The position numbers and the translations under genes are program-made. A DNA stretch of 64,000 bases from a virus: IMG/VR virus record IMGVR_UViG_3300020046_001459, positions 3,750-67,749 of that record; one strand, 5' to 3'. The number at the start of each line of letters is the position of its first letter. Position 1 is the stretch's first letter. The notes under the pieces are model-generated. The model made no database searches, was not told the DNA's origin, and saw nothing but the letters and a program-made list of their open reading frames with translations. Positions 3,402 to 63,570 of this stretch are shown in pieces.

Positions 3402-4574
3402 ATGCCTGGATTTTCAAGTAATGATCAGATAATAGAAGCGTTAAGCTTAGGACAAAAATGGGATGCTAATTGGTCTAAAAACACAGCCCCTACAACTGTA
3501 GCTATTGCCAATGAATGGGCTACTTTATTTAGAGGAGCTGGTAATCCTCCTGCAGATGCTTTATATAATACAGGAACTAACTTAACTTTTCAAGCTGTAA
3601 AAGATACCACAGCAAATGCTGCATCTATCCCACATGGTGGAAATGTACAACCTACTTATTATAAGTATTTATTAAGTGGACATGCTGTAACTGCTGCTGC
3701 AACCGTAGCACCATGTACATTAGCTTTAGTAGATGTAATAGGATTCTATAGGGTTACATCAGTAACTACTACTACTGCTCAAGCTACTACTAATACATTA
3801 GGTCAATCAGATACATTTACTGCTGATGATACTACTGATATTTGTATTTATACTTCAACAGCGAATATTCCTAGTAATATATTAACAGGAACAAGAGTAC
3901 GTTTAACAACAACTACTACATTACCTGCGCCTTTAGCCACAGCTACTGATTATTATGTTGTTAAGGTTTCAGATACTACTTTTAAATTAGCAACATCTTA
4001 TGCTAATGCTGTTGCAGGTACTGTTATTGATATAACAACTACAGGTACTGGAACACATACCATAACATGGTTATTACCACGTTATACAAATGGTGCAGGT
4101 GTACAAGCAATTATATTTAATTCTAATGCAACAGCATTAGGAGCAGCTACTCCTAACATGAGTTTAGGATACACCAATTCTAGCCAAACAACATCAAGAG
4201 CTACACCAACAGTGTTACCTATTGGTAAAACAGCTTGTCCAAACTCTCAGATTGTGTACACAGGAGCTACAGGTACAGGTAAATATAATTATATGATGCC
4301 ACTACAAAGTGGTGATGCTGGTATAGCGGAAATAAATACTATTCAAAACTCTACATCTTATGTAAGTGGTGAGTATACAGTTGCTTTAGTAAAAGAACTT
4401 GGTAGATTCCCTATATCAACTTTAGGATTAGCAAGTGAGCGTAACTTCTTATTTGAATATCCTAGTATGCCACGTATTTATGATGGGGCTGCTTTATATT
4501 TCTTAATTGGGCATGGTGCCGCTACACCAACAAATAGTGCATTAAGTGGTATGTTAACTACTGTTTGGAGATAA
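3402..4574 (+). CDS. virion structural protein (390 aa, Thr/Ala-rich)
   Basis: ORF; long poly-T/A stretches (TTTTAQATTNT, TTTTTLPAPLATAT). Confidence 0.6.
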   Translation: MPGFSSNDQIIEALSLGQKWDANWSKNTAPTTVAIANEWATLFRGAGNPPADALYNTGTNLTFQAVKDTTANAASIPHGGNVQPTYYKYLLSGHAVTAAATVAPCTLALVDVIGFYRVTSVTTTTAQATTNTLGQSDTFTADDTTDICIYTSTANIPSNILTGTRVRLTTTTTLPAPLATATDYYVVKVSDTTFKLATSYANAVAGTVIDITTTGTGTHTITWLLPRYTNGAGVQAIIFNSNATALGAATPNMSLGYTNSSQTTSRATPTVLPIGKTACPNSQIVYTGATGTGKYNYMMPLQSGDAGIAEINTIQNSTSYVSGEYTVALVKELGRFPISTLGLASERNFLFEYPSMPRIYDGAALYFLIGHGAATPTNSALSGMLTTVWR

Positions 4575-5437
4575 TGTTAATTACTAATTACTCATATATT
4601 AATAAACCATTAGGAAGAAATCATAGTGGAATAACAAACCCACGGTGGGTTTGTAAACCAGAAGTTATGAGAAATTTCTTCACACAAGCTGATATTACTA
4701 ATATAGAGCAGATAAAAAGAGATTCTTTTCCTACAGGAACCAATCCTCCTTACTCTTATGTGTTAGGAGATAAAGGTGGTTTATTAAGTGCCTCTACTAC
4801 TAATAATGGTAGTGCAACTATTGCAGGTAATATATCTCAAGGTATTAATATTGATGCTACATTAGCAGGAACTAGTGATATTTCTACAGCTAACTTAGCT
4901 TTAGTAGTACAATTAGCTGCAGCATTAGCTGGAGATGGTCAGATCACTGCTGCAAATCTTGTAGGTACAATTGCTTTAGCAGCTACCTTAACAGGTACTG
5001 GTAATCTTACAGCAGGTTTAAATGTTATTGCCTTTATGACTAGTACCTTAGCTGGTACTGGTGGATTAACTGCAACATTAAGAGGTACTTTAGATATGTC
5101 TGCAGATATATTTGTTAACCAATCTGAAGCTACTGTACAACAGTTGATAGAAGGTGTATGGAATGCTATGGCTGCTGATTATAATAATCCTAATACAATG
5201 GGAGAAATTATGAACAACTTAGGTTCAGTAGCAGATCCTTGGTCTACTACATTACCAGGTGCTTATGCTCCAGGTGAAGCAGGATATATATTAGGTAACT
5301 TATTAGTTAATATACCTGATGCTGTTTGGGATGAATTAAAAACTACACATACTACAGCCAGTTCATATGGTAAGATAGTTCAAGACTTAGAAACAATAGC
5401 TAAACAAATAAAAGGATTAACAGCAGCAAACCTATAG
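4565..5437 (+). CDS. structural protein with ~20-aa Ala/Thr/Gly LAGT..ANL repeats
   Basis: Periodic motif DATLAGTSD..ANLALVVQLAAALAGDGQITAANLVGTIALAATLTGTGNLTAGL. Confidence 0.55.
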   Translation: MEIMLITNYSYINKPLGRNHSGITNPRWVCKPEVMRNFFTQADITNIEQIKRDSFPTGTNPPYSYVLGDKGGLLSASTTNNGSATIAGNISQGINIDATLAGTSDISTANLALVVQLAAALAGDGQITAANLVGTIALAATLTGTGNLTAGLNVIAFMTSTLAGTGGLTATLRGTLDMSADIFVNQSEATVQQLIEGVWNAMAADYNNPNTMGEIMNNLGSVADPWSTTLPGAYAPGEAGYILGNLLVNIPDAVWDELKTTHTTASSYGKIVQDLETIAKQIKGLTAANL

Positions 5438-7948: not shown

Positions 7949-8427
7949 TGTTTAAGATAGGAAGAAGAACTAAAGGAAAATTAAAGGTAGATATAGGATT
8001 AAAGAATTTCTATGCTGAATATAAAAGAGAAGCTGAGATTAAGAATCGAACACCTGTATCATACGAAGTATTTAGCAAGGCTATAAAGCTATTCAACACT
8101 AAAGTATCTGAAAGGGTAGTTTATAAGTGTGAAAGTTATAAAATGCCTTATAGGTTAGGTTTGTTGGGAGTAATTAAGTTTGAACAGAAGTTTGATCCTG
8201 ATAAGAAATACAAATGGGCTGTAGACTGGAAAGCATCTAAAGAACATAATCAGATCATCTACTTTGAGAACTCAGATAGGTATAAATGGAGATGGGACAA
8301 ATCCTATACTCGTTTTAAAGGTAAGAAATATTACGCATTCAAAGCTACTAAGCAAAATAAAATATTAATTAAAACAGCAAAACAAGAGAATCCTAAGTTA
8401 GACTTTTATTCAAAACTAGCACCATGA
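7948..8427 (+). CDS. basic Lys/Tyr/Trp-rich hypothetical protein
   Basis: ORF; ATG overlaps preceding stop. Confidence 0.5.
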   Translation: MFKIGRRTKGKLKVDIGLKNFYAEYKREAEIKNRTPVSYEVFSKAIKLFNTKVSERVVYKCESYKMPYRLGLLGVIKFEQKFDPDKKYKWAVDWKASKEHNQIIYFENSDRYKWRWDKSYTRFKGKKYYAFKATKQNKILIKTAKQENPKLDFYSKLAP

Positions 8428-9125
8428 TATACAAATATAAATCATCTAAATCTATTATAGCTAAGCTATATCGTGATTTAGGATCTAATGGAGAAATTAA
8501 TGAATCAGATGTCCTTGAATGGATAGGTGAGGCTATGGCTAGAATTGGTGCCTACTCACAATATCTTAATAAGTCTATTGTGTTAGAGGTTACTAATTAC
8601 AGGGTAATGTTACCTTGTGATTTTGTTTATCCTATTGATATAGCACATAATGGTAGACCATTATCATGGAAAAATAAATCTATGATAGCTAACTATGGCT
8701 GTCCAGATTGTAATCAGATACCTCAATGCTGTACTGATCATACTTTTTATATACAAGATAATTGGATCAATACTTCTTTTGAAGAAGGAGAGTTGTGTTT
8801 AGTATATCAAGCTGTAGCTACTGATGATGAACACTTTCCACTAGTTCCTGATAATACATATTTTGATGAGGCTCTATCCTCATACTGCACTTTTAGATTA
8901 GATAGAATAGATTACCGCCAAGGTAAAATAGCTAAAGATGTTTATATGGAATCCCAAAGAGATTGGTTATTCTATGTTAACTCAGCTAGAGGTTCTGCTA
9001 ATATGCCAGACACAGCTAAAATGGAACAACTTAAAAATGTATGGTTAAGGCTAATGCCATTAACTAATGAATATGCTAACTTCTTTAGCAATACAGGAAA
9101 CAGAGAAAGGAAATACTTACAATAA
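8424..9125 (+). CDS. Cys-rich hypothetical protein (CPDCNQIPQCCTDH)
   Basis: ORF with cysteine cluster. Confidence 0.5.
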   Translation: MIYKYKSSKSIIAKLYRDLGSNGEINESDVLEWIGEAMARIGAYSQYLNKSIVLEVTNYRVMLPCDFVYPIDIAHNGRPLSWKNKSMIANYGCPDCNQIPQCCTDHTFYIQDNWINTSFEEGELCLVYQAVATDDEHFPLVPDNTYFDEALSSYCTFRLDRIDYRQGKIAKDVYMESQRDWLFYVNSARGSANMPDTAKMEQLKNVWLRLMPLTNEYANFFSNTGNRERKYLQ

Positions 9126-18887: not shown

Positions 18888-21800
18888 ATGGGTAAAAAAG
18901 AAAAATTTTCAGGTATTCCTCAAGAAGCCATTAACCAACCAATACAATTAGATCCAGCATTATTTAAACAAAAATCAGAATTTATAGGTTCTTCACAGAA
19001 TAAAGATTTTGGGGAAAGTAAGCTTGATACTAATGTACCTGTTTCAATGGTTGAATCAGGAGATTATAAATACTTACGTGGTCAAAAACAATCTAATTTG
19101 GATAAAGCTGCTCATGGAATTATCCGTGGGGTAGGAGCCGCTGCTCAAACTTTAGCAGATGGTACTGTTGGTATTGGTTATGGTTTGATGAAATATTCAT
19201 CAGATGTTGCTACAGATGAATTAAATAAAGCTAAATATAAAGCTGAACATGGTACTCTTGAAGGATTTAAACCTTCTTCATGGACTGCTATCTTTGATAA
19301 TGAAGTTACTAGAAAAGGTGAGGAACTTGTTAAGGATCTAGAAGGTGAAGTACCTCTCTATAATACTAAAGAGTATGAAGAGGCATCTGGTATTGAGAAG
19401 TTGAAATATATGAACTTCTGGATGGATGATGTTGTTAAAGGTATTGGTACCACAGTTGGTTCTATGCCTTTAGGAGCTATGGGCTCTAAATTATTTAATG
19501 CTATTGGTAAGAACTTTGTAGCTGGTAAACTAGCTAATGGGGTTAAGACTGCATTAACTGGTACTGAGAATCTGGAAAAGGTTCTTGTAGATCAAGCTAA
19601 AAAAATAAAAATATATAATGCCACAGATAAACTAACTGCCAGTGCTTTTGCTTCTGTAAGTGAGGCTGGTATGGAAGCTCGTGGTACAGGAGATAAATTA
19701 CGAGAACAGTTATTATCTGAAATCTCTGCTAATGGTACAAGACAACCTACTCAAGCAGAATTAGACTGGGTAGAAATGACTGTAGATGATGCTAAGAAAG
19801 CTGCTTTTGGAACTAACATGGCTATTATTAGTGGTACAGATTTCTTTACCTTTGGTAAGTACATGGTATCTAATAAGTCTGCTAAGTACTTAGACGATAT
19901 AGAAAAACTATCTTCTAAGACTAATGTTAATGCTGGAAAGTATATCAATAAGGTTTCTAAAGAAGGTTCTACATTAGGTACAGATTACGTAGCTACAGAG
20001 TTATCTAAAAGTAAAAAAATATTAGATGCTGTAACTAAAGCTACTAAGCGTGTTATAGGAACTAATCTTGGTGAAGGTATTGAAGAGAATCTTCAAACTG
20101 CTACTGATTGGGGAGTTATTGACTTCGCTAAACAAAAATATTATGGTAAGCAAGATGCAGAATCTTTCTTACATTCATTAGGCGCAGCCTATGAAGGTGC
20201 AACATCTTCTGAAGGTGTTGAGGCTTTCTTAGCCGGATTTATTAGTGGTGGTATCTCTAACACTATTCTATCTAAGGGACAAAATATTAAAGAAGCATTC
20301 TCTAAGGATCCTGTTGTTAATAATGCTTTATCACAAATAAACCTATACAACTCTCAAAGTGTTATGGGTGAGTTAATGAAAGGTGTTGCTGAACAGTATG
20401 CTGCTGGTGTGCGTATGGATAATGCTAAGAGTGATACTTTTACATTTAACAATGCTCAATCAGATTTAGCTACTAGTTATGTATTAAGTCGTATTAAGAC
20501 TGGTAAGTTTGAAGATTTACAAACAGATCTTGATGAGTTAAAATCAATGCCTTCTGATGAGGTAGAAAAACTATTTGGTGTTAAGATTGGTGAAGGTGGT
20601 AAGAGATCTGTAGTAGATTATATCCAAGGAAAGATGGAGCAAGCTAAACAGATCAAACAGATCCATGATGCTAGTTATGTTGTGTTCCCTGAAGGAACTG
20701 TATCTGATAATAATCGTGATAGATTAATACATGCTAATGTATCTATCTTAGACTCACAAAAACGTATAGACTCTGTTAATAAAGATATCTTAGAAAAAAC
20801 AACAGGTCTATCTGAAAACTATAGTGAGAACGGACAAGTATCTACTGTTAACCTATCTCATTTCACAAAATCTGATGGTACAGTAGTTAACTATAATCAA
20901 CTTTCAGGTAAAGAAAGAAGTGCTGTTAGTGGTGAAATAGTTGCTAGATTAGAAAATAGTTCTATAGCTCCTGTAGAAATTCCTGGAATATTTAATCAAT
21001 TACATGATTTAGATAGATTAAAAGTTAGGCATGATGCCTATAAGGATATTTATAATTCATTATTAAATCCTGTAGAGGCTGCTAAGTTAGATAAAGAAGA
21101 TGCTGCTATTGAGAAAGAAATAGTACAGGAGAATGCTGCTAAAAAACTACAAGAAGAAAATCCCATTGTTACCAAAACTACAGAAAGTAAATCTGCTGCA
21201 TTAGCTGCTGCTCAAAAAGAAGCTACTGAAAATGGTAATATTGATGTCAACACAGAAGATTTCGCTGATCCTAATATTAAAAAAGCTAATACTATTATAG
21301 ATAAGATTGGGGAATCACAAATAGATAATCCAATGTTTGATGCTTCTGGTAATTTTAATCCTGATGCGGAAGATCCTGGTAAAAAAACATATGATAATTC
21401 TAAAAAACCTTTAACTGTACATAAAGAAGTTCTATCTGGGAAAGATACTTTTAATAGAATACATGTTAATAAGCATGATGCACCCAACGTTAAGGTTAAT
21501 GAGCTTAGAAAAGCACTGAGTAATATTTTTAAACTTCCAAAATCTGAATGGAATAAATATATAAAAATAGATCTTACTAATTATTGGTCTACAAGAAATA
21601 CTTCCAGTGATCAAATTCATACTAATAAATCTAATTCCCCATTTAATACTAAAGGTAACCAAGATATAGATACTAAAATTATTATTATTGATCCTGCTAC
21701 AGGAAAGATAGTAGATGATTTCCATAATATAAAGTATCATAATATGCTTACTCCTAAGAAGGAGATGGTTATAGGTACTAAAACATATAAACCTGGTGAG

Positions 21801-24800
21801 TCTATTGAGATTGATCAGCTTACATATGAAGAGGCTGTAGAACTTTTTGCAATAAATCAAGATGAAGAATTAACTGAGGAAGAATTTGAAGCATACAAGA
21901 TCTCTTATAAAGAGATAAAAGACTTACGTAAAGCATTAACACTTTACTATGAGTCTACTAAGAAGAAAGATGAAGAGCACATGGAGGTTCCATCTAAGAT
22001 GTATGATGTAGCTCCATTATGGGCTCTTGATTATATTCAAGATGGTGCTGTAGAATATCCTGCTATAAGTACTATAGAAGGTGCTAAAGATACTGATGGT
22101 AAATATGTTATTTATCAAGGTGGTACTGTGCAGAAATTTTTGATTGGTACTGATACTAAAGTTGGAGATATAAATACCGTACCTAATGGTAGTGGTGTTT
22201 ATCTTCAAGTTACTTTGCCAGATGGCTCTAAGAAATGGATGCCTATTAAATCTGCTAAAGTTAAACCTGCTACTAAAGTATGGGAAAGAATTCAGAATGC
22301 TGCTGCAGAATTAGCTAAAATACCAGCAGGTAATAAAGAGGAAGCATACCAAGTTATTAAAGATTTATCTTTGTATGCCGCAGGTAGAGGTAAGTTGGAT
22401 TTTAGTTATGGTTGGAATTCTGATTTAAAAAAATACACATTACGTTTCAATGTTGGTAATGGTCTTGAAACTCCTAAGTCTATTGACTTATCAGAAGGTG
22501 TTTCTAAGACTGATAAAGCTACTATGCTTGAGAAGGATTTAAATTTCCTTATTAATCGTATTAACTATCATGCTAATAAGAGAGGAATATCTACTACTAT
22601 AGACGAAAATTCTTTTAGAGAAGATACCCCTATAGAACCATCTAATAAACCTATTGTAGGTAATTTTGTAGCTACTGCTACTGGATTTACACCTACTAAT
22701 ATTAAGATATATCCAGCTGATTTAGCTGTTAAAGAAGCTCCTGTTGTTGTATATAAGAAAAAAAGCACACCTACTAAAACAGAAAAAGCAGATGTTAAAC
22801 CTGAGCCTAAAACTAAGGTAGATGGACTTATAGAAGAAGATAAGAAATTTAAAGATAAGGGAATTACTAGAAAAAGAAAAGGTAAAAATGGTGCTGCAAA
22901 AACAGGTAGTACTACAAAAACCCCTATTGATCTACAGAAAGCCTTAGACTATTTAAAAGGTATATTACCTGCAGGTATTAAAGTTGAGATGTCCCATGTA
23001 GCTGAAAAGCTATCTAATGGTGATATGTTATGGGGATTCTTTAGTGATTCAGTATTGAAGCTTAACGCCTTAGCTGAAGCTGGAACTGAATTCCATGAAG
23101 CTTTTCATGCTGTATTTAGATCTGTATTATCTGATAAACAGATAGATACTTATTTATCAGTGGCTAAAAAAGAAATGAATCTTTCTGAAGCTCAGTTAGA
23201 GGCACGTAAAAATGAATTACGCTCTTTATATGATGAGATTAGTGAGAAAGAATTAGAAGATTTAGTTTATGAGGAATACTTAGCAGATAAATTCCAAGCT
23301 TGGAAAAAGGATAAAGCAACTCCTACTGCTGTAGTAAACAAAGGATTATTTAGAAGATTATTAGATTTTGCTAAAGAATTCTTAGGTATTAAATCTAAGG
23401 TAGATAGTTTATTTGAGCGTATAGATACTGGATATTATGCCGGTAAAGATGCTGTTATAAACAGATTTACAGATACAGATCAAGCAGCATATAAATCATT
23501 ACCAGGTAAAACAATAGCACAATCTAAAGATATTATTGTTACTGTTGCTGCAAAAGCTGCAGAAACTGCATTCAAAGAAAAGTCTAAAAAACCTGATATT
23601 ACCAGAGCTCTAGATGAATATATACAAGGTTATTCTTCAGAAGCTAACGTGGATGAGAAGAAAGCTGTACGTGCTTTACTACAAGAAGAGTATGAATACT
23701 TAACACATCCTGAGATCTATAAACAGATATTTACTGAAGTAAATAATATTACTAAGCGTTATAAGTATGATGCCATGACTGACTCTTTTCTTGAAATGGA
23801 AGAGTCTGAGGGCGGTGCTGAGAATTGGCAATTTGATCACTTTGAAGTAGGTGGTGTGGATATGTTAGATTCTGATATAAGATCTTTCCTAGCCTTAACC
23901 TTATATGAAACTAAGGATGAGTATGGACGTACTATTCAGAAAGCTATCAATTTAGATACTGTATATAATGCAATTATTACCAACTTAATTGATGTACACC
24001 CTTCTGAATTTTTATCTAGATTAAAAGTACTTAGTAAGTATAATCCTGAAGTTAGGGCTGTGGTTGCTAAGATTGAAGCTAAGACTAAAGATAGAGGACT
24101 TGTTGGAGAACAACTATTAAAGAAAATTCAGAAGTCATTTGAGCGTACTAAAATGAATTACTTAACCATACGTTCTGTAACTAATGGTACCTCAAATATA
24201 TTTAACTCTAACTATAAGTCTCCTGAAAAGAAACTATTCAATAATTGGTCTAACAACTATATACACAATATTTTAGGTAAATTAAGTTCTGATACTAAGT
24301 TTAAGAAGGAAGTTATTAAGAAGTTATTAGATATTCAAAAAGCTATTAATAATGATACTTCTACAGTAGGTGTTAAAAAAATACCTTTAAAAGAAGCTAT
24401 TATTAGCACATTAAATGAATTAGGTATAGATATTACCGAAGGTACAGTAGATTTATTCTTTACTCCTAATACGGATAACTCGTTAGATGCTATTAGAGAA
24501 CAATACAAAGATCTTGAGAAACCTATCGTAGGATTCTTTAGTCACCTTAGTAACTTAGTATCTAAAGGAGATCTTATCTATAAAGGAGCTCTTGAAACTA
24601 ATGATAAGGACTCTGTTGGTTATGTAAAGCAATTATTAAATTTAGCTATAGCAGATAAACATTTTAGAGCAGACTTATTTGAGTCATCTTTCCAAGACGC
24701 TAGAAATAAGAACAGATACTCTTTTATAATGCAGTCTTATTTATCAGACATGATTATAGAGTTACAGAAAGGGCTATCTTCTAAAACAGCTGTTGAAGAA

Positions 24801-27800
24801 AAACAAAAAGATCCTTACTTTGCTAAATCACCGTTATTTAAATTATTCACACCTGCTGTTATTGCTGATACTTTCAGTAATATGCAATTGTTATTTACAG
24901 GAGATTTAATTGAGGTAGAAGAAAAAACCTTCGATGGTAAAAAATCCTTTACTAAAAATGAACGTGTAGATGGTGTTACTGCTAAGAATATCAAGGCTAA
25001 AGAATACTTGCTTATGCAGTTATTATTATTTAGTGATCAACAAAAAAACACACAGACAGGATTAAACACAGCTAAGTATGTTGTAGGTGTAGAAGAGTCT
25101 AAATCTCAGATCTACGCTGTAGACTTACCTGTACTAACAGGAGTTGTTACAGAAGCAGGTATGATCAATGGGGATGGTGCTCTGCAAATATTTAATACTA
25201 TATTCTCTCAAGAAATTGATAGGTTAATAAATGGTATTCCTTCTAAAAAGAAGGGGTTTGCTTATTTTAATGACTTTAATAATAGAGAGAAATATAAAGC
25301 TTTACATGATACCTTTGAAGGAGAATATAATACAAAAGGAGAGCTTGTAAAAATTAATAGGATTGCTAATAATGATACTTTTAAAGCAGAGGCTTTGAAA
25401 GCTATTACACAAACTGTTAATGAAGAAATAACAGATGTATTATCTATGGCTAATGAATATCAATTAGCTGATAGAACTAAGAATGGTGTTGAGACCTATG
25501 GTACTTTCGATAAGTTAGTAGGTTCTGCTGTAGTTAATGACTTTTTAATGTCTTCCTCAATAGATCAACTTGTTGATGGAGATTTATCACAATATAAAGA
25601 TGTCGATGATAAATTTAAGCGTAATGGCGGTAGAAATGCAGCTGGTATAAACAGATCTGGTAGTGAGATTAATGTTGCTTATACTACTGAGTCTAAAGAA
25701 ACTAAGAAAGATTCTATCTCAGGAGATGCTGAAATAAATGTAGATGATGCTCAAGTATATTCTTCTGTACAAGATAGGATAAATATGTTAAGTGATTTTG
25801 GTAGATTAACACCAGAAATAGAAGATATTCTTAATCGTATAGATAATCCTCCTATTGTTAATGGTGTACCTCAGTTTATTACAGAAGAAGAAGCTAGTAA
25901 GGTAGACTTAGTTGCTGCTAAGTTAGTTACCTATGGTAAAGATAATGCTGGTAATTTAATTTACCACAAGATGTCTGTATTCCCTTTAACTAAACAATTT
26001 ACGTCAAGATATGATGCTAAGTCTGAACGCTGGGTAGCTTTACCAGGAAGAGAAAAACTACACAATAAGAGGGAGTGGATGGAGAAACATAATATTCATC
26101 AACTGATACCATTATCAGCTTCTAAATTAACTAGTCCTGATAATATTATTAAGCATGAAAGCTTCAATAGTTCTGATTTTGATGTGAATAATCATTTTGG
26201 GTATAAAGATAAAGATGGTAATCTTAAATCTTACGCAAAATATAATGGTAAATTCCAACGTTTACAAGTAGAGAATGATTCTGGTTCTACAGAGATTGTT
26301 AATGGTACTCAAAAAATACAGTTGATTACTGCTGGTCTTGACATGACTAAAGATAGTAATGTCAATGATGTTAAAAAGTATTATGAATTGTTAGCTAAAC
26401 TACGTCAAACCTTATTTGATGATGCTTTAAGTATACTAAGTACATCAAAAGAAGGTAAAACAAGACGTAAGGATCTTAAAGTATTCATTAACAAATTGAT
26501 GAATAATGCTGCTTCTAGTGGTTCTAGTTTTATTATGGAACAATTCTTAGCTGAAGAAGGCGGAGATTTTAAAAATGATCCTAACTTACCACACTTATTA
26601 AGTCAGTTTGAGAAGTATTTCTTAGCACACTTTAATAAAGGTGTTATGATTCAGAAAACTACTGGTAATAAACTTACATTAGTAAGTGCTGATGGTATTA
26701 AAGTACATCGTGATAATTATGGTAAAGTAATTTCTGCTGAGGAGTTAGCTGTTAATCCCAAGTTAGCTGTTAATCCGGCTGAAGATTTACGTATCCATAA
26801 AATGGAAAATGGTAAGTTACAGTATGCTGAGGTTATGATGACTAGACGTTCTGCTGAACTACTAGGACTTAAACCTGGTGATAGTCTAACTGCAGAAGAA
26901 GTTAAGATCATGTTGGGTACTCGTATCCCATCACAGTCTCAACACTCTATGATGCCATTTAAAGTTGTAGATTTCTTACCTGACTACTATGGTGATAGCA
27001 TAATAGGCCCTAAAGAATTAGTATGGTTATCAGGAGCTGACTTTGATATTGATAAGTTGTATGTCTATAGAAAAGGTACCTACAGAAATAAAAAAGGTGA
27101 CCTTGTTATTTTTGGTAAGGGTAATGCTTTTGAAGAATACACATTATCTAAAAAAAATACTAAGGTATTTAAAGATACCTTGGAGAAGATGGTTTTAGAG
27201 AATCCTACTTTCCCTGAATATAAGGATTTACTAGATAGACGTAATGCTATTTATGCTTCTTTAGAAGAAAACTTAGCTAAATCTAAAAAAGAAGACCAGC
27301 GTGCTTTATTGAGAGGTATTAAAAATTTAAAAAACTTAATTAAAATTAATGCTATTAATTCTAAAGAAGACGAAGATCATCCTTTAGTACAAGAAAGAAG
27401 AAAAGCTCAACTTTTATTTGACTCTATTAAAGATGATTTAGATAAATATACTACTGCTGCTGGCGGTGGTATGTCATTATCTAGTATTAATGATCGTATA
27501 ACTCAATTTGAAGAAGCTTATGAATTAGATGCTATGGAAGAACTTGGTTTTATTACTTCTAGTACTGAATCAGTTCCACCCGCAGCTGAGACTTTACAAA
27601 ATCAATTATTAGACTTAGAATTATCTCTATTAGATAGACCAGAACTAGAGGAGTCCTTAAAGACACCTGCTAGTGTAGACACTCTTAAAACCATTGCTAA
27701 CACTCTAACTAAAGTAGGTGGAGCTAAGTTAAATAAAGCAAGGTTATCTTTAGGATTATTATCTAAATTTATTGGTAAGAAGAATATTGATATTGGTAAA

Positions 27801-30125
27801 GAAAATATTGGTATTGCTGCTAATGGCAACATAGCCAATGCTTGGTTAACTACTAATAGAATCCACTTAAAAGATGAATTTGCTATTAATCTAGACGGTA
27901 AAAACTATGGTAGTTTTGAGTTTGTTAATGAAGAAGATATGGTGTTGAATGAAGATGGTACTTTGAATAAAGAACTTATTCGTAAACCTAAATCTGATAC
28001 TATTTCTACTGAACTATCGGCTGCTACAGATAACGCCAAAGAACAATTAGCATCATTAGTTAATCGTGCTAGTGATATTTTAAATGGGGTGTTAGTTTGG
28101 CAATCTTTAGGATTAGGGCAGACACGTACTACTATTATGGCTGTACAACCTATCATGGTTGAACTTACAGAAAAGATAGAGTTAACTAAATCTAATATTG
28201 ATAAGAAATCCCTTAAGATAGGTACATCAATGGTTCCTAGAGCTAAAGATGTTGCTGGAGCGCTTATGGAAGATCTTATGCAAAAATTCTATGCTGCTGC
28301 TGAAAAAGAAATGGAAGCAGCTAATATAAAAGGTACTCGTGAGGATATTAAGGAACCTCAGTATTCTTTAAACACTGAACAGTTACTAGAAATTTATAAG
28401 AAAGGTAAAGCTGAAACTTCTGACGAAATTCTACAGCAAATAGCTGTATTAGGTGCATATATCAAAGCTATGGAAGTTAATGATGCTAACACTAAATTAT
28501 TATCTTTATTAAAAGTTAATAAGGGAGTAGGATCTGAACTAACCAATCTTGAAACCATAGCTGAAAATTATGAGGCTTTACAAGATTCTGCACAAATACC
28601 TTATGGTCAAAGTTTTGTAAACGCACTTAGAACACATCCTAATATTAAAGTAAATAAGGATATGGCTAGAACTATAAAGAATATAGCGTCTGAATTTTTT
28701 ATTCGTGAGACTGGTGGTTATAAAATTTTTCAAAATAGATTTGGTAAGTTATTTGGAAATAGAAATTTTAGAGAAAAACAAAAGGCTGTTAAGGACTTTT
28801 TAACATTCCTAAATTTACGTATCTATGAGAAAACCCTACGTGAAGATTATGGTGATGACAGTTTTAGATTAGATGAATTGAATAAATTAGCTTACTCTGG
28901 TATAGAGGAAGGTAGTGTTTCTATTATAGCTGACTTTAATGCTTTATTAAAAACTGATTCAGTACTAGAAGTAATAGCATCTAATTCAAAGAAAGAATTT
29001 GCAAAGAATGATTTAGTTAAGTGGTTAACTGTAAAACCAGCAGATTCTAACTATAGAAGAATAGACTTATTAACTGTTGATACCCGTGCTAAACTGTCTA
29101 ATGATGTATTAGAAAAGTTTAACCAATCATTAAATGATCTTTATAACTCTTCTAACGCGGATATAAAACAATTTGCACAGGATGTATTTGATTATTTAGT
29201 TGTAGAAGGTAATCTAAAGTTTACTAACGAAAGTTTAATTAAGTTTATAGGACCAGAATTCTTCTTAAGTATATCTAAGAAGTTGAAAGAAGTTACTAAA
29301 CTCTTTGGTACTGTTGGTCCTAAAGAACTTTCTGTTGAGGATAAAACTTTTAATGCTAAGTTACAAACTGCTACTGGTTATACCTTTTCAGAGCTAGTTA
29401 ATATGTATACAGAGTTATATGCACGTAGTACTAAAAATGCTAAGAATTTAATAAATGTACACGGTAAAGATTTTAAAGAATCCTTTACAGTAACTTTGAA
29501 TAAAGATGTATTGTCTGTTGATTTAATTGATGTTGAAAAAGCAAACCAACAATCTTTTATGGAGGGTATTGTAGAAGATAAGACTGTTGTAGGATTAAAG
29601 TTCCCTGCCTTTTTAGGTGTAGTTGGTAAAAATCAAATGATGGAGGATTATCATGATGTTTATAAACTGACTGAAAGTACAGACTTCAAAGCTGTATATA
29701 CAAGAGTTGATAAATTTTATGACTTACATAACCCTATGTTACATCTATCTCCAGAGGAGGCCACTAAGTTATCTCAATACCTAGCTAGTAAAAAAGGTAG
29801 TTTTAATGGGGCTTATTCTGATAATGTAGAGTATACTCAAGAAGATTTAGATTTTGCTAACGCACAATTTCAGAGAGCTAAACCAGAATATGCTTATGAA
29901 CCTGGTAGTAATATAGAAAATGCACCTGATTTAGATGATGAGAATTTACCTGGTACTATACCTGCTTCTTTAGTATCTAGAATAGAAACTATAGGTGAAG
30001 AAGAATATGAGGTACCATTAAGATACTGGGAAGCTGCAGATGCTGAAGCTGAGCGCCAACAAGGTAAGACCCCAGATGTAGATGATAATAATTTACCAGA
30101 TATTAAAGATCCAAACTGTGATTAA
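18888..30125 (+). CDS. giant protein (3745 aa) with RNA-polymerase-like DxDxD catalytic-loop motif; candidate virion-packaged RNA polymerase as in crAss-like phages
   Basis: Single uninterrupted ORF; motif WLSGADFDIDKLYVY (DFDID) ~residue 2720 resembles the NADFDGD loop of the RNA polymerase double-psi beta-barrel; highly basic K-rich linker near residue 1290. Confidence 0.7.
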   Translation: MGKKEKFSGIPQEAINQPIQLDPALFKQKSEFIGSSQNKDFGESKLDTNVPVSMVESGDYKYLRGQKQSNLDKAAHGIIRGVGAAAQTLADGTVGIGYGLMKYSSDVATDELNKAKYKAEHGTLEGFKPSSWTAIFDNEVTRKGEELVKDLEGEVPLYNTKEYEEASGIEKLKYMNFWMDDVVKGIGTTVGSMPLGAMGSKLFNAIGKNFVAGKLANGVKTALTGTENLEKVLVDQAKKIKIYNATDKLTASAFASVSEAGMEARGTGDKLREQLLSEISANGTRQPTQAELDWVEMTVDDAKKAAFGTNMAIISGTDFFTFGKYMVSNKSAKYLDDIEKLSSKTNVNAGKYINKVSKEGSTLGTDYVATELSKSKKILDAVTKATKRVIGTNLGEGIEENLQTATDWGVIDFAKQKYYGKQDAESFLHSLGAAYEGATSSEGVEAFLAGFISGGISNTILSKGQNIKEAFSKDPVVNNALSQINLYNSQSVMGELMKGVAEQYAAGVRMDNAKSDTFTFNNAQSDLATSYVLSRIKTGKFEDLQTDLDELKSMPSDEVEKLFGVKIGEGGKRSVVDYIQGKMEQAKQIKQIHDASYVVFPEGTVSDNNRDRLIHANVSILDSQKRIDSVNKDILEKTTGLSENYSENGQVSTVNLSHFTKSDGTVVNYNQLSGKERSAVSGEIVARLENSSIAPVEIPGIFNQLHDLDRLKVRHDAYKDIYNSLLNPVEAAKLDKEDAAIEKEIVQENAAKKLQEENPIVTKTTESKSAALAAAQKEATENGNIDVNTEDFADPNIKKANTIIDKIGESQIDNPMFDASGNFNPDAEDPGKKTYDNSKKPLTVHKEVLSGKDTFNRIHVNKHDAPNVKVNELRKALSNIFKLPKSEWNKYIKIDLTNYWSTRNTSSDQIHTNKSNSPFNTKGNQDIDTKIIIIDPATGKIVDDFHNIKYHNMLTPKKEMVIGTKTYKPGESIEIDQLTYEEAVELFAINQDEELTEEEFEAYKISYKEIKDLRKALTLYYESTKKKDEEHMEVPSKMYDVAPLWALDYIQDGAVEYPAISTIEGAKDTDGKYVIYQGGTVQKFLIGTDTKVGDINTVPNGSGVYLQVTLPDGSKKWMPIKSAKVKPATKVWERIQNAAAELAKIPAGNKEEAYQVIKDLSLYAAGRGKLDFSYGWNSDLKKYTLRFNVGNGLETPKSIDLSEGVSKTDKATMLEKDLNFLINRINYHANKRGISTTIDENSFREDTPIEPSNKPIVGNFVATATGFTPTNIKIYPADLAVKEAPVVVYKKKSTPTKTEKADVKPEPKTKVDGLIEEDKKFKDKGITRKRKGKNGAAKTGSTTKTPIDLQKALDYLKGILPAGIKVEMSHVAEKLSNGDMLWGFFSDSVLKLNALAEAGTEFHEAFHAVFRSVLSDKQIDTYLSVAKKEMNLSEAQLEARKNELRSLYDEISEKELEDLVYEEYLADKFQAWKKDKATPTAVVNKGLFRRLLDFAKEFLGIKSKVDSLFERIDTGYYAGKDAVINRFTDTDQAAYKSLPGKTIAQSKDIIVTVAAKAAETAFKEKSKKPDITRALDEYIQGYSSEANVDEKKAVRALLQEEYEYLTHPEIYKQIFTEVNNITKRYKYDAMTDSFLEMEESEGGAENWQFDHFEVGGVDMLDSDIRSFLALTLYETKDEYGRTIQKAINLDTVYNAIITNLIDVHPSEFLSRLKVLSKYNPEVRAVVAKIEAKTKDRGLVGEQLLKKIQKSFERTKMNYLTIRSVTNGTSNIFNSNYKSPEKKLFNNWSNNYIHNILGKLSSDTKFKKEVIKKLLDIQKAINNDTSTVGVKKIPLKEAIISTLNELGIDITEGTVDLFFTPNTDNSLDAIREQYKDLEKPIVGFFSHLSNLVSKGDLIYKGALETNDKDSVGYVKQLLNLAIADKHFRADLFESSFQDARNKNRYSFIMQSYLSDMIIELQKGLSSKTAVEEKQKDPYFAKSPLFKLFTPAVIADTFSNMQLLFTGDLIEVEEKTFDGKKSFTKNERVDGVTAKNIKAKEYLLMQLLLFSDQQKNTQTGLNTAKYVVGVEESKSQIYAVDLPVLTGVVTEAGMINGDGALQIFNTIFSQEIDRLINGIPSKKKGFAYFNDFNNREKYKALHDTFEGEYNTKGELVKINRIANNDTFKAEALKAITQTVNEEITDVLSMANEYQLADRTKNGVETYGTFDKLVGSAVVNDFLMSSSIDQLVDGDLSQYKDVDDKFKRNGGRNAAGINRSGSEINVAYTTESKETKKDSISGDAEINVDDAQVYSSVQDRINMLSDFGRLTPEIEDILNRIDNPPIVNGVPQFITEEEASKVDLVAAKLVTYGKDNAGNLIYHKMSVFPLTKQFTSRYDAKSERWVALPGREKLHNKREWMEKHNIHQLIPLSASKLTSPDNIIKHESFNSSDFDVNNHFGYKDKDGNLKSYAKYNGKFQRLQVENDSGSTEIVNGTQKIQLITAGLDMTKDSNVNDVKKYYELLAKLRQTLFDDALSILSTSKEGKTRRKDLKVFINKLMNNAASSGSSFIMEQFLAEEGGDFKNDPNLPHLLSQFEKYFLAHFNKGVMIQKTTGNKLTLVSADGIKVHRDNYGKVISAEELAVNPKLAVNPAEDLRIHKMENGKLQYAEVMMTRRSAELLGLKPGDSLTAEEVKIMLGTRIPSQSQHSMMPFKVVDFLPDYYGDSIIGPKELVWLSGADFDIDKLYVYRKGTYRNKKGDLVIFGKGNAFEEYTLSKKNTKVFKDTLEKMVLENPTFPEYKDLLDRRNAIYASLEENLAKSKKEDQRALLRGIKNLKNLIKINAINSKEDEDHPLVQERRKAQLLFDSIKDDLDKYTTAAGGGMSLSSINDRITQFEEAYELDAMEELGFITSSTESVPPAAETLQNQLLDLELSLLDRPELEESLKTPASVDTLKTIANTLTKVGGAKLNKARLSLGLLSKFIGKKNIDIGKENIGIAANGNIANAWLTTNRIHLKDEFAINLDGKNYGSFEFVNEEDMVLNEDGTLNKELIRKPKSDTISTELSAATDNAKEQLASLVNRASDILNGVLVWQSLGLGQTRTTIMAVQPIMVELTEKIELTKSNIDKKSLKIGTSMVPRAKDVAGALMEDLMQKFYAAAEKEMEAANIKGTREDIKEPQYSLNTEQLLEIYKKGKAETSDEILQQIAVLGAYIKAMEVNDANTKLLSLLKVNKGVGSELTNLETIAENYEALQDSAQIPYGQSFVNALRTHPNIKVNKDMARTIKNIASEFFIRETGGYKIFQNRFGKLFGNRNFREKQKAVKDFLTFLNLRIYEKTLREDYGDDSFRLDELNKLAYSGIEEGSVSIIADFNALLKTDSVLEVIASNSKKEFAKNDLVKWLTVKPADSNYRRIDLLTVDTRAKLSNDVLEKFNQSLNDLYNSSNADIKQFAQDVFDYLVVEGNLKFTNESLIKFIGPEFFLSISKKLKEVTKLFGTVGPKELSVEDKTFNAKLQTATGYTFSELVNMYTELYARSTKNAKNLINVHGKDFKESFTVTLNKDVLSVDLIDVEKANQQSFMEGIVEDKTVVGLKFPAFLGVVGKNQMMEDYHDVYKLTESTDFKAVYTRVDKFYDLHNPMLHLSPEEATKLSQYLASKKGSFNGAYSDNVEYTQEDLDFANAQFQRAKPEYAYEPGSNIENAPDLDDENLPGTIPASLVSRIETIGEEEYEVPLRYWEAADAEAERQQGKTPDVDDNNLPDIKDPNCD
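26744..26776 (+). repeat. in-frame tandem duplication (15-bp exact repeat GTTAGCTGTTAATCC x2, period 18) inside giant gene
   Basis: Encodes LAVNPK LAVNPA. Confidence 0.6.
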
Positions 30126-62644: not shown

Positions 62645-62679
62645 GTTTTAATTTTATTTAAATGATTAATTGATTAAAA

Positions 62680-62741
62680 AATAGATGTCTCATAAGTGAA
62701 TGAAAACCCACACGACAAGGGCTAGAGAGCACTTATGAGAC
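62680..62741 (-). terminator. 12-bp perfect stem-loop (GTCTCATAAGTG / CACTTATGAGAC, 31-nt loop) followed on - strand by U6; separates RNA island from early genes
   Basis: Arms at 62687-62698 and 62730-62741. Confidence 0.45.
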
Positions 62742-62785
62742 TAAAGACCCTATTAAGCCTTTTTTCACTCTCTATTTTAATTTGA

Positions 62786-63060
62786 TTGACTAGCTTATCT
62801 GCGCTTATACAACGTGCACCGTTAAAAGCAATTCGTTATATCCAGTTAAGGAGCTCAATGGCCCTACACCACGCCTTTGTATCAATTGCAGACTATCAGG
62901 AAGTGTGTTGTGACTTTCGACTCGACTCTATTACAGACTTCTTACTTCGTACACGGGTTGCTTGCGCCATCCGACATTTGAAGACTACGAGGCTATCCTC
63001 AGTTCTATTCAAGCCCACACACCGATAGCTTTACACTAGTCAATTGGTTGGTAGTTAGTA
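62786..63060 (-). ncRNA. GC-enriched non-coding island directly downstream of tRNA-Met; candidate structured RNA of unknown class
   Basis: No - strand ORF; markedly higher GC than genome; only a spurious + strand ORF. Confidence 0.3.
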
Positions 63061-63106
63061 TAGTTACTTCCTAGGAATAAATGTTTTCACTACACCTCCC
63101 ACCCAG

Positions 63107-63180
63107 TGCACCCTCGTGGACTCGAACCACGCACCTACAGATTATGAGTCTGTTGCTCTGACCAACTGAGCTAAGGGAGC
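63107..63180 (-). tRNA. tRNA-Met (anticodon CAU; initiator/elongator/Ile2 not distinguishable)
   Basis: Cloverleaf: acceptor GCUCCCU/AGGGUGC (one 3:70 mismatch), D-arm GCUC-AGUUGGUCA-GAGC, anticodon stem ACAGA/UCUGU loop CUCAUAA, T-arm CGUGG-UUCGAGU-CCACG, discriminator A. Confidence 0.85.
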
Positions 63181-63184
63181 TTTG

Positions 63185-63570
63185 TGGACCCGAAGGGAAT
63201 CGAACCCTTGTAATCATAAGTTATTAATTAATTTTCTACAAGTTTAGTATTTGTTTTTCTCCCAATACAGGATATTATATTTTTATTCAGACCAGCACTT
63301 AAATATAAAAACACACTAGTCTTGTTAGGTACAAGAACAACTAAACCTTGAGGTAGTTATCTACCGTTAAGCAGCCACAAGTTCCTCAACTTGTGTCTTT
63401 GCTAACATGTTGTTAGCTAGAACGTACTTAAGGTCTTGGATAGATCCAAGGCTTGAGTCTTTGTTGCCAAATACTCGGTTACCTGATAATTTATTAAACG
63501 CTGATATTATCAGACAATGCGTTACTTGCTTGTTAATTTATAATCAAATGACTCAAAACCTGGCGGGCCC
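63185..63570 (-). ncRNA. candidate tmRNA-like RNA (~386 nt) whose 5' and 3' ends form a tRNA-Ala-like domain
   Basis: 5' GGGCCCG pairs 3' CGGGUCC giving G3:U70 wobble and A73; T-arm AAGGG-UUCGAUU-CCCUU; long-range helix 5' UUAUAAAUUAA / 3' UUAAUUAAUAA; internal frame GCA AAG ACA CAA GUU GAG GAA CUU GUG GCU GCU UAA (AKTQVEELVAA*). Confidence 0.4.

Follow-up and report, generated by a model that had tools for sequence, protein, structure and literature searches.

Does a 386-nt stretch near one end of a piece of uncultivated phage DNA encode a working tmRNA and, if it does, at which codon would translation resume and what tag would be added? We addressed this in a window of 64,000 nt (positions 3,750 to 67,749 of IMG/VR record IMGVR_UViG_3300020046_001459; coordinates below are those of the window), in which a first-pass annotation had proposed a phage-encoded tmRNA-like RNA abutting a tRNA-Met gene. 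Two independent detectors, covariation and the phage context agreed with that proposal, and we put the probability that positions 63185-63570 of the minus strand are a functional one-piece tmRNA gene of a virulent-type, uncultivated tailed phage at about 0.9.

The locus was identified as a tmRNA gene by both programs suggested for checking it. ARAGORN called a tmRNA at 63184-63570 on the minus strand, and the covariance-model search matched Rfam RF00023, the best-scoring member of its clan at this locus, at 61.6 bits (gathering score 47, E = 1e-21) over model positions 1-374, the full length of the model. The gene was 100% identical in L132, an assembly from a second sample. The gene and its tRNA-like parts are as follows.

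63185-63570, minus strand: one-piece tmRNA (ssrA), 386 nt, from G1 (63570) to the discriminator A73 (63185).
63564-63570, minus strand: 5' strand of the acceptor stem, GGGCCCG, pairing with 63186-63192 (7 of 7 positions paired, including G3:U70).
63186-63192, minus strand: 3' strand of the acceptor stem, CGGGUCC; U70 is 63188.
63193-63209, minus strand: canonical T-arm, AAGGG-UUCGAUU-CCCUU.

The 7-bp acceptor stem, its G3:U70 wobble and the discriminator A lay exactly where the first-pass annotation had placed them, as did the T-arm beside the 3' acceptor strand, and the absence of a D-arm and an anticodon arm could be read directly from the letters. The CCA end was not encoded in the DNA; CAAA follows the discriminator directly. 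Covariation supported these elements. Acceptor positions 4-7 each showed two to four pair types among eight homologs, and the first T-stem pair was A:U, G:C or C:G among variants. G3:U70 was invariant in four close copies and, together with the discriminator A, throughout the window subfamily; both were present in six of the eight homologs checked by hand and, with few exceptions, across the 31-member family table. G3:U70 was missing from two relatives, L009 (U3:A70, with discriminator G) and L036. Decay or a different mode of action is possible for some family members, and these two, having lost the alanine identity pair, may be charged differently. When 316 pair cells were counted in the four close copies, 97.5% were paired, compared with 31-46% when the partners were slid against each other, and six pairs had changed on both sides, all of them in the tRNA-like domain. 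T-loops with a 54/58 swap also occurred among the relatives.

These features bear on whether the element could instead be a tRNA-Ala-like gene split by a large intron, or else the degenerate remains of a tRNA. Other T-arm-like remnants nearby and the group I introns of the related phage L020 speak for such an origin. Against it, the D-arm and anticodon arm are absent, the full-length tmRNA model matched, no tRNA or intron model matched over 63185-63570 at E <= 1, and three features described below, the first pseudoknot, the context of the resume codon and the tag frame under selection, are specific to tmRNA. We regard an intron-containing or remnant tRNA as having next to no chance of being correct.

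The tmRNA reading also accounts for the sequence between the two acceptor strands, where we located the following elements.

63524-63553, minus strand: 5' strand of helix 2, comprising P2a 18-23, P2b/c 28-38 and P2d 42-47 (tmRNA numbering).
63212-63243, minus strand: 3' strand of helix 2 (tmRNA 328-359), pairing with 63524-63553 and holding the near-invariant AAACUUGUAGAAA.
63479-63523, minus strand: pseudoknot 1 (PK1), stem 1 48-52/70-74 and stem 2 54-65/81-92.
63276-63351, minus strand: variable segment of the pseudoknot domain (tmRNA 220-295), with one or two small pseudoknots or hairpins at the most.
63247-63272, minus strand: last pseudoknot or hairpin (tmRNA 299-324), UCCU/GGGA and GUAUU/AAUAC.

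Helix 2 (P2a-d) comprised 22 pairs, with 87-100% of cells paired. Three pairs of P2a had changed on both sides in the four close copies, and in P2d A:U was exchanged for U:A in L009 and L020. The 10/11-bp long-range helix noticed in the first-pass annotation is part of it, being tmRNA 28-38 with 340-350 (window 63543-63533 with 63231-63221). PK1 sits just upstream of the mRNA-like domain. Its stem 1, AACGC/GCGUU in the window, occurred in four complementary versions among eight homologs and in 12 distinct, perfectly complementary versions in the wider family. Stem 2, UUGUCUGAUAAU/AUUAUCAGGUAA, forms 12 bp, was equalled by none of 300 shuffles and covaried in L009 and L134.

Downstream of the tag the structure was less constant. 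Between helix 5 and the last pseudoknot lie 70-76 nt that differed in sequence and best folds even among the closest variants, and the comparison does not establish a canonical arrangement of four pseudoknots. The last element was invariant in the four close copies, and a matching stem of other sequence but still complementary was found in L009 (ACAGU/ACUGU), in L019 and L134 (AUAGUU/AACUAU) and in L020 (UUUAUUU/AAAUAAA). In the window subfamily this element could fold as a pseudoknot; in the other relatives it is a simple hairpin. A last pseudoknot before the 3' strand of helix 2 is plausible. For the AT-rich P2 helices and this last hairpin, an automatic search for the best helix gave no useful information. 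The folding check for PK1-PK4 thus gave a solid PK1 and a plausible last pseudoknot, without the canonical set and with an unconserved middle. Known tmRNAs typically have PK2-PK4 downstream of the tag, though these vary and can be dispensed with. The number of pseudoknots varies among known tmRNAs, and pseudoknots can be replaced in them (PMC2481249, PMC1168896). The post-tag pseudoknot domain of this tmRNA is reduced and variable.

We then considered the mRNA-like domain, which contains three in-frame resume candidates, GGC at tmRNA position 103, GCU at 154 and GCA at 169. The first-pass annotation had started the frame at GCA, reading AKTQVEELVAA-stop. The end of that frame was real; the resume codon, GGC, lies 22 codons upstream of the GCA.

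63466-63468, minus strand: resume codon GGC (Gly), tmRNA position 103, with U and A at -5 and -4 (63473 and 63472).
63367-63468, minus strand: tag frame, 33 codons, GNKDSSLGSIQDLKYVLANNMLAKTQVEELVAA, followed by UAA (63369-63367).
63435-63450, minus strand: hairpin hp1 in the tag frame, CUUGGA-UCUA-UCCAAG.
63378-63393, minus strand: hairpin hp3 over the last tag codons, CAAGUU-GAGG-AACUUG, in the position of helix 5.

Rfam alignment, the A at -4 and selection upstream of GCA all pointed to GGC. The consensus resume codon of the Rfam model aligned to it, and ARAGORN found the same tag frame. In E. coli U85/A86, A86 acts as a ruler four nucleotides ahead of the resume codon (PMC2481249), and the UA at -5/-4 of GGC has the same geometry, which supports this codon. 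An A stood at -4 of a GG[CA] codon in all eight hand-checked homologs. Family-wide extraction, which demanded an A at -4, yielded GG[CA] or, rarely, GCN codons, with tags of 32-42 residues in nearly all extracted members (exceptions L153, 10, and L139, 17); almost all of these tags start with GN.

The tag frame is under purifying selection. Tags were compared by global alignment and codon counts, and in the subfamily used for this purpose (window, L002, L033, L034, L140, L143, L159, L009 and L160) dN/dS was 0.15-0.3 over tag codons 1-21, with dS up to ~1.8. The changes in this interval included Ser AGC to UCU switches, and the peptide was kept despite synonymous changes in L140, L143, L159, L009 and L160. 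Substitutions at codon positions 1, 2 and 3 numbered 51, 43 and 80, an enrichment at the third. From composition alone, the probability for each frame to be open was only 3-9%. Two hairpins are superimposed on the frame: hp1 was present in six of six subfamily members, its pairing in L143 and L159 being preserved by a compensatory change of U:A to A:U, and hp3 showed a compensatory A:U to U:A change in L009. BLASTP of two tags gave no matches, tags being too short for BLASTP, and a scan of genome and metagenome contigs with the resume-site 18-mer GTATTTGGCAACAAAGAC returned 94 loci, none of them a tmRNA and all of them protein-coding matches to VFGNKD.

Resumption at the internal GCA (63402-63400) or GCU (63417-63415) would give a tag of 11 or 16 residues and make the upstream frame accidental. 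GCA is the commonest resume codon, the 16-residue version ANNMLAKTQVEELVAA resembles cyanobacterial-type tags of that length, and composition alone gives the frame about an 8% chance of being open. The position at -4 is, however, U for GCU and G for GCA, both codons lie inside a 7-bp hairpin, and neither the Rfam consensus position nor the low dN/dS of codons 1-21 fits such a start; relatives, moreover, kept a GN... start with A at -4. An internal start is very improbable. We predict from these comparisons that translation resumes at GGC and that GNKDSSLGSIQDLKYVLANNMLAKTQVEELVAA follows the charged Ala, so that the tag has 33 residues rather than 11. Gly resume codons and mRNA-like domains of 48-126 nt are known (PMC1168896), so this tag, though long, falls inside the documented range.

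Relatives of the gene were collected in several ways. Polymerase-based and pattern-based searches found three close variants (L002/L035, L034 and L033), and Rfam together with a local nhmmer profile found the homologs L019, L134, L036, L009 and L020; L020 belongs to a related phage that carries group I introns. The wider family was retrieved from IMG/VR with a gapped pattern on the two near-invariant P2d strands, which gave 36 stretches; with L009 and L020, which came separately from nhmmer, the set amounts to 31 non-redundant tmRNAs. All 31 lie on viral contigs of 10-500 kb. ARAGORN called 15 of the 31 and made no call in more distant relatives, including L036 and L134, which are tmRNAs by nhmmer and Rfam. 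As the program misses about half of the lineage, the frequencies published for phage tmRNAs are probably too low. No blastn match to the window tmRNA was found among 50,697 GenBank phage records.

The gene lies in phage DNA. The window, at ~32% GC, has two divergent gene arms and encodes a family A DNA polymerase (PolA), a primase, a DnaB-like helicase, virion proteins, a NAMPT and PRPP-synthetase pair and giant ORFs of 1608, 3745 and 1320 residues; no integrase was found in it. The phage is probably of ~100 kb, non-jumbo and virulent-type, with 64 kb seen here. Because the tmRNA gene is 430 nt from the window edge, its far side was checked in relatives. L132 is the same phage from another sample; its RNA cluster is 100% identical, and past the window edge it runs into small ORFs and an N6/N4 DNA methylase. 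L033 and L034 have small co-oriented phage ORFans upstream of the tmRNA. These phage genes on the far side argue that the gene is not a host ssrA at a prophage junction.

That question matters since ssrA is the integration site of many temperate phages, which take the 3' part of the gene with them (PMC9004378), and a gene so close to the edge could be host chromosome beside a prophage, or a functionless passenger left by imprecise excision or an att-site remnant. Here, however, the gene is full length, and the far side in L132, L033 and L034 is phage-type, with neither integrase nor housekeeping genes. The flanks are mosaic among relatives and the RNA is conserved, and the 31 viral copies hold their structure by covariation and their tag by purifying selection. 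A host gene or host fragment is thus highly unlikely, and the tmRNA is best read as belonging to the phage.

The surroundings of the gene were examined next, on the side of its 3' end.

63106-63180, minus strand: tRNA-Met(CAU), found by ARAGORN and by Rfam (66.3 bits), 4 nt (CAAA) after the tmRNA.
62786-63105, minus strand: 320-nt non-coding, GC-richer, RNA-like element in the same apparent transcription unit as the tmRNA.
62678-62778, minus strand: stable conserved structure, a 12-bp hairpin GUCUCAUAAGUG/CACUUAUGAGAC inside an outer stem, followed by U6.

The tRNA-Met gene reported in the first-pass annotation was recovered at 63180-63106, separated from the tmRNA by the spacer CAAA. It is elongator-type or Ile2-type (G1:C72, with the GGG/CCC anticodon stem absent) and was not at the same position in L002, L033 or L034. 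Other members of the family also have a tRNA no more than 7 nt from the tmRNA, but a different one: tRNA-Leu in L019 and L142, and in L147 a tRNA-Arg on the upstream side. From these arrangements the abutment appears to reflect a mosaic RNA-gene cluster and no fixed tmRNA-tRNA-Met unit. Between the tmRNA and the putative terminator the window holds the tRNA-Met and the 320-nt element, L033 the element only and L002 neither. The element matched no Rfam family at E <= 10, had ordinary fold stability (z = -0.65) and no open frame on its sense strand, and no further homologs of it were found. The structure at 62678-62778 is stable (-34.2 kcal/mol, z = -3.89) and is kept in L033 and in L002, where it lies 6 nt past the tmRNA; it is probably the terminator of the RNA gene cluster.

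On the 5' side, the promoter-like TAacTTTG element proposed in the first-pass annotation did not hold up. It is present, as TAACTTTG at 63597-63590 upstream of the tmRNA, but its motif class occurs at chance frequency (TANNTTTG, 99 occurrences in the window against 93.9 expected) and it is absent upstream of the homologous tmRNA genes in L002 and L033. No sigma-70-like site was seen directly upstream of the tmRNA. With no convincing promoter directly upstream, co-transcription with upstream genes is possible. ACTACTCGATTGGCGTAA was also considered as a promoter and rejected, being single-copy and only a syntenic landmark. At 8 nt upstream of G1 stands TATAAATA, parts of which recur in L033 and L009. 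The T-arm-like remnants lie further out, at 63722-63706 and 63693-63677.

As predicted from its sequence, the window tmRNA is real and probably functional, and by analogy with known tmRNAs we infer how it might be processed, alanylated, used with host SmpB and coupled to proteolysis to the benefit of the phage. The tmRNA would most likely be co-transcribed with tRNA-Met and the 320-nt element, up to the hairpin and U-run. RNase P would generate both 5' ends, that of the tmRNA and that of tRNA-Met, and the cleavage at tRNA-Met would also free the tmRNA 3' end, leaving a 4-nt CAAA trailer that would then be trimmed; since CCA is not encoded, it would be added after transcription. Host alanyl-tRNA synthetase would charge the molecule via G3:U70 and A73, and host SmpB and EF-Tu would deliver it to ribosomes stalled on broken mRNAs. 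Host SmpB is assumed because tblastn with SmpB query sequences found no SmpB in the 64-kb window, which is an incomplete genome, or in related loci. The nascent chain would be moved to Ala, translation would restart at GGC, set by the A four nucleotides upstream, and the ribosome would add the 33 residues, stop at UAA and be recycled. The hydrophobic ...LVAA end would presumably direct the product to host ClpXP-type proteases. During infection, as host mRNAs are broken down, the phage may gain by keeping ribosomes available and perhaps by recycling amino acids.

In most respects the predicted molecule is like a bacterial one-piece tmRNA (SsrA, RF00023), with the same tRNA-like domain (G3:U70 and A73), T-arm, long helix 2, PK1 before the resume codon, A at -4, ...VAA-UAA tag end and helix-5-like hairpin. 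It differs in being phage-encoded, in its unencoded CCA and in having no cognate smpB nearby. Its tag has 33 residues and a Gly resume codon, compared with ~10 residues in E. coli. The E. coli tmRNA has ~160 nt, holding PK2-PK4, between helix 5 and helix 2; the window tmRNA has ~108 nt.

A tmRNA is carried by ~2.3% of 18,146 phage genomes (PMC9004378). Huge phages carry them as well (PMC7162821), and mycobacteriophage cluster C is reported to do so too. Known phage tmRNAs (cluster C, huge phages, marine myophages such as Melnitz) likewise belong to lytic phages and are often adjacent to tRNAs, their function usually undemonstrated. Melnitz-type tmRNA genes are two-piece and riboswitch-linked, in contrast to the one-piece gene described here, and some huge phages also carry SmpB, in contrast to what was seen here. 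Phage tmRNAs as such are therefore already known; a lineage with an unusually long, 33-residue, peptide-conserved tag is previously unremarked.

Why phages carry tmRNAs is a matter on which the literature offers speculation only (PMC9004378, PMC7162821). The present lineage indicates that a non-jumbo, virulent-type phage invests in ribosome rescue, and its 31 viral tmRNAs make a clean comparative set. In it a resume site can be fixed by the A(-4) rule combined with codon-level selection, and very long tags can be conserved as peptides.

This conservation leaves room for a working tmRNA whose main value is something other than generic rescue, either a phage-specific role of the tag (being recognised by a certain adaptor or protease, for example, or serving to mark or re-route the host proteins that carry it) or replacement of a host tmRNA inactivated during infection or by a defence system. 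Purifying selection over the whole 33-42-residue peptide, beyond the C-terminal degron, and the conserved hairpins within the tag frame are consistent with the former. In bacteria, however, the N-terminal portion of the tag is likewise conserved, because adaptors bind it (SspB in E. coli), so peptide conservation alone implies no new role. Replacement has a parallel in the proposal that phage tRNAs replace host tRNAs cut by defence nucleases (PMC10264068). We consider a main value of either kind rather unlikely. Similarly tentative is the broader reading that the at least 31 copies in IMG/VR represent a widespread viral tmRNA lineage whose 32-42-residue tags have a peptide role beyond the C-terminal degron; the tags may in that case engage a specific adaptor or protease or re-route tagged host proteins. 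If a phage-specific tag function were true, the family would be a tractable entry to why phages carry tmRNAs.

Permuted genes offered a further comparison. Permuted two-piece architecture (RF04321, RF01849-51) was rejected for the window tmRNA, whose acceptor 5' strand is at the 5' end of the gene and whose T-arm is at the 3' end. The crAss-like phages cr50_1, cr10_1, cr114_1 and cr125_1 and Chryseobacterium phage MA9V-3 do carry permuted two-piece tmRNAs (RF04321, 60-65 bits), which gave no match to the window family profile. These phages are AT-rich, of ~100 kb and from Bacteroidota-type environments, as here, and their T-arm and acceptor sequences resemble those of L019. Their tags have 13-17 residues but also start with GN (GNVIDINKYVAKLEVAA, GNNFVTDYTAIGA), and this shared start hints at a Bacteroidota-associated origin.

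About half of the viral tmRNAs considered here escape the standard gene finder. ARAGORN finds 15 of the 31 non-redundant viral members of the tmRNA family (loci L002-L165), which Rfam and nhmmer detect, and because it calls just these 15, ARAGORN-based censuses of phage tmRNAs are probably underestimates.

The alanine identity pair is missing from two members of the family, found in these related viral loci:
L009:1264-1658: tmRNA with U3:A70 and discriminator G
L036:2909-3305: tmRNA with G3:C70 and discriminator C
Both retain pseudoknot 1, helix 2, the A at -4 relative to the resume codon and a long open tag frame. These RNAs may be pseudogenes or tmRNAs carrying another amino acid. The L009 tmRNA also shares with those of L141, L149 and L155 a T-loop reading AUCGUAC in place of UUCGAxU, in which positions 54 and 58 are exchanged (U..A to A..U), as if the T54-A58 pair had changed in a compensatory way.

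Two further elements lie downstream of the tmRNA and tRNA-Met genes in the window:
62786-63105, - strand: 320-nt non-coding stretch between tRNA-Met and a terminator-like hairpin
62678-62778, - strand: stable structure, conserved in relatives, that contains a 12-bp hairpin and, directly after it, U6
The 320-nt element has a GC content of 43% (vs 32% window-wide), and every sense frame is closed. It matched no Rfam family at E <= 10 and its fold stability is ordinary (z = -0.65). The sole further copy (L033:8341-8658) is 99.4% identical, and predicted pairs are preserved at both of the two differences. The element lies within the putative tmRNA-tRNA transcription unit. The structure that follows is very stable (-34.2 kcal/mol, z = -3.9) and has counterparts in L002 (~725-830) and L033; most likely it terminates transcription of the RNA gene cluster, though it could instead be a leader of the next gene.

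Other tRNA-like elements were observed in the window:
63722-63706, - strand: T-arm-like mini-hairpin GCAGG-UUCGAUU-CCUGU, upstream of the tmRNA
63693-63677, - strand: T-arm-like mini-hairpin AUAAG-UUCGAUU-CUUAU, upstream of the tmRNA
35331-35404, - strand: tRNA called Phe(AAA), with a 9-nt anticodon loop (CGUAAAAAG)
Neither mini-hairpin gave a tRNA call. Comparable mini-hairpins occur downstream of the L020 tmRNA (~4606-4680). Such hairpins could be what is left of former tRNA genes, or could serve as signals for RNA processing. The tRNA tentatively assigned to Phe is placed exactly where the two divergent gene arms meet. Upstream of the family A DNA polymerase (PolA) gene in several relatives (L004, L005 and L023:6572-6640; L009:4315-4384; L017:801-870), ARAGORN reports tRNAs with 2-nt anticodons to which it assigns no identity; for the one in L009, the Rfam tRNA model gives 49.9 bits.

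In L020, two group I intron matches (8001-8372, 77.9 bits; 8884-9032, 48.7 bits) fall inside the DNA polymerase region, which accounts for the split PolA match of this related phage. In the crAss-like uncultured phage cr50_1, a RAGATH-22 RNA (L167:871-1037, 155.6 bits) lies ~420 nt upstream of a permuted tmRNA.

Elsewhere in the window, protein-coding genes include:
36897-38534, - strand: nicotinamide phosphoribosyltransferase
38596-39513, - strand: adjoining ribose-phosphate pyrophosphokinase
18888-30125, + strand: 3745-residue ORF in the structural arm
The first two form an NAD-salvage pair, which possibly counters NAD-depleting host defences. The 3745-residue ORF has no PHROG match; its neighbours on either side in the structural arm are ORFs 1608 and 1320 residues long.
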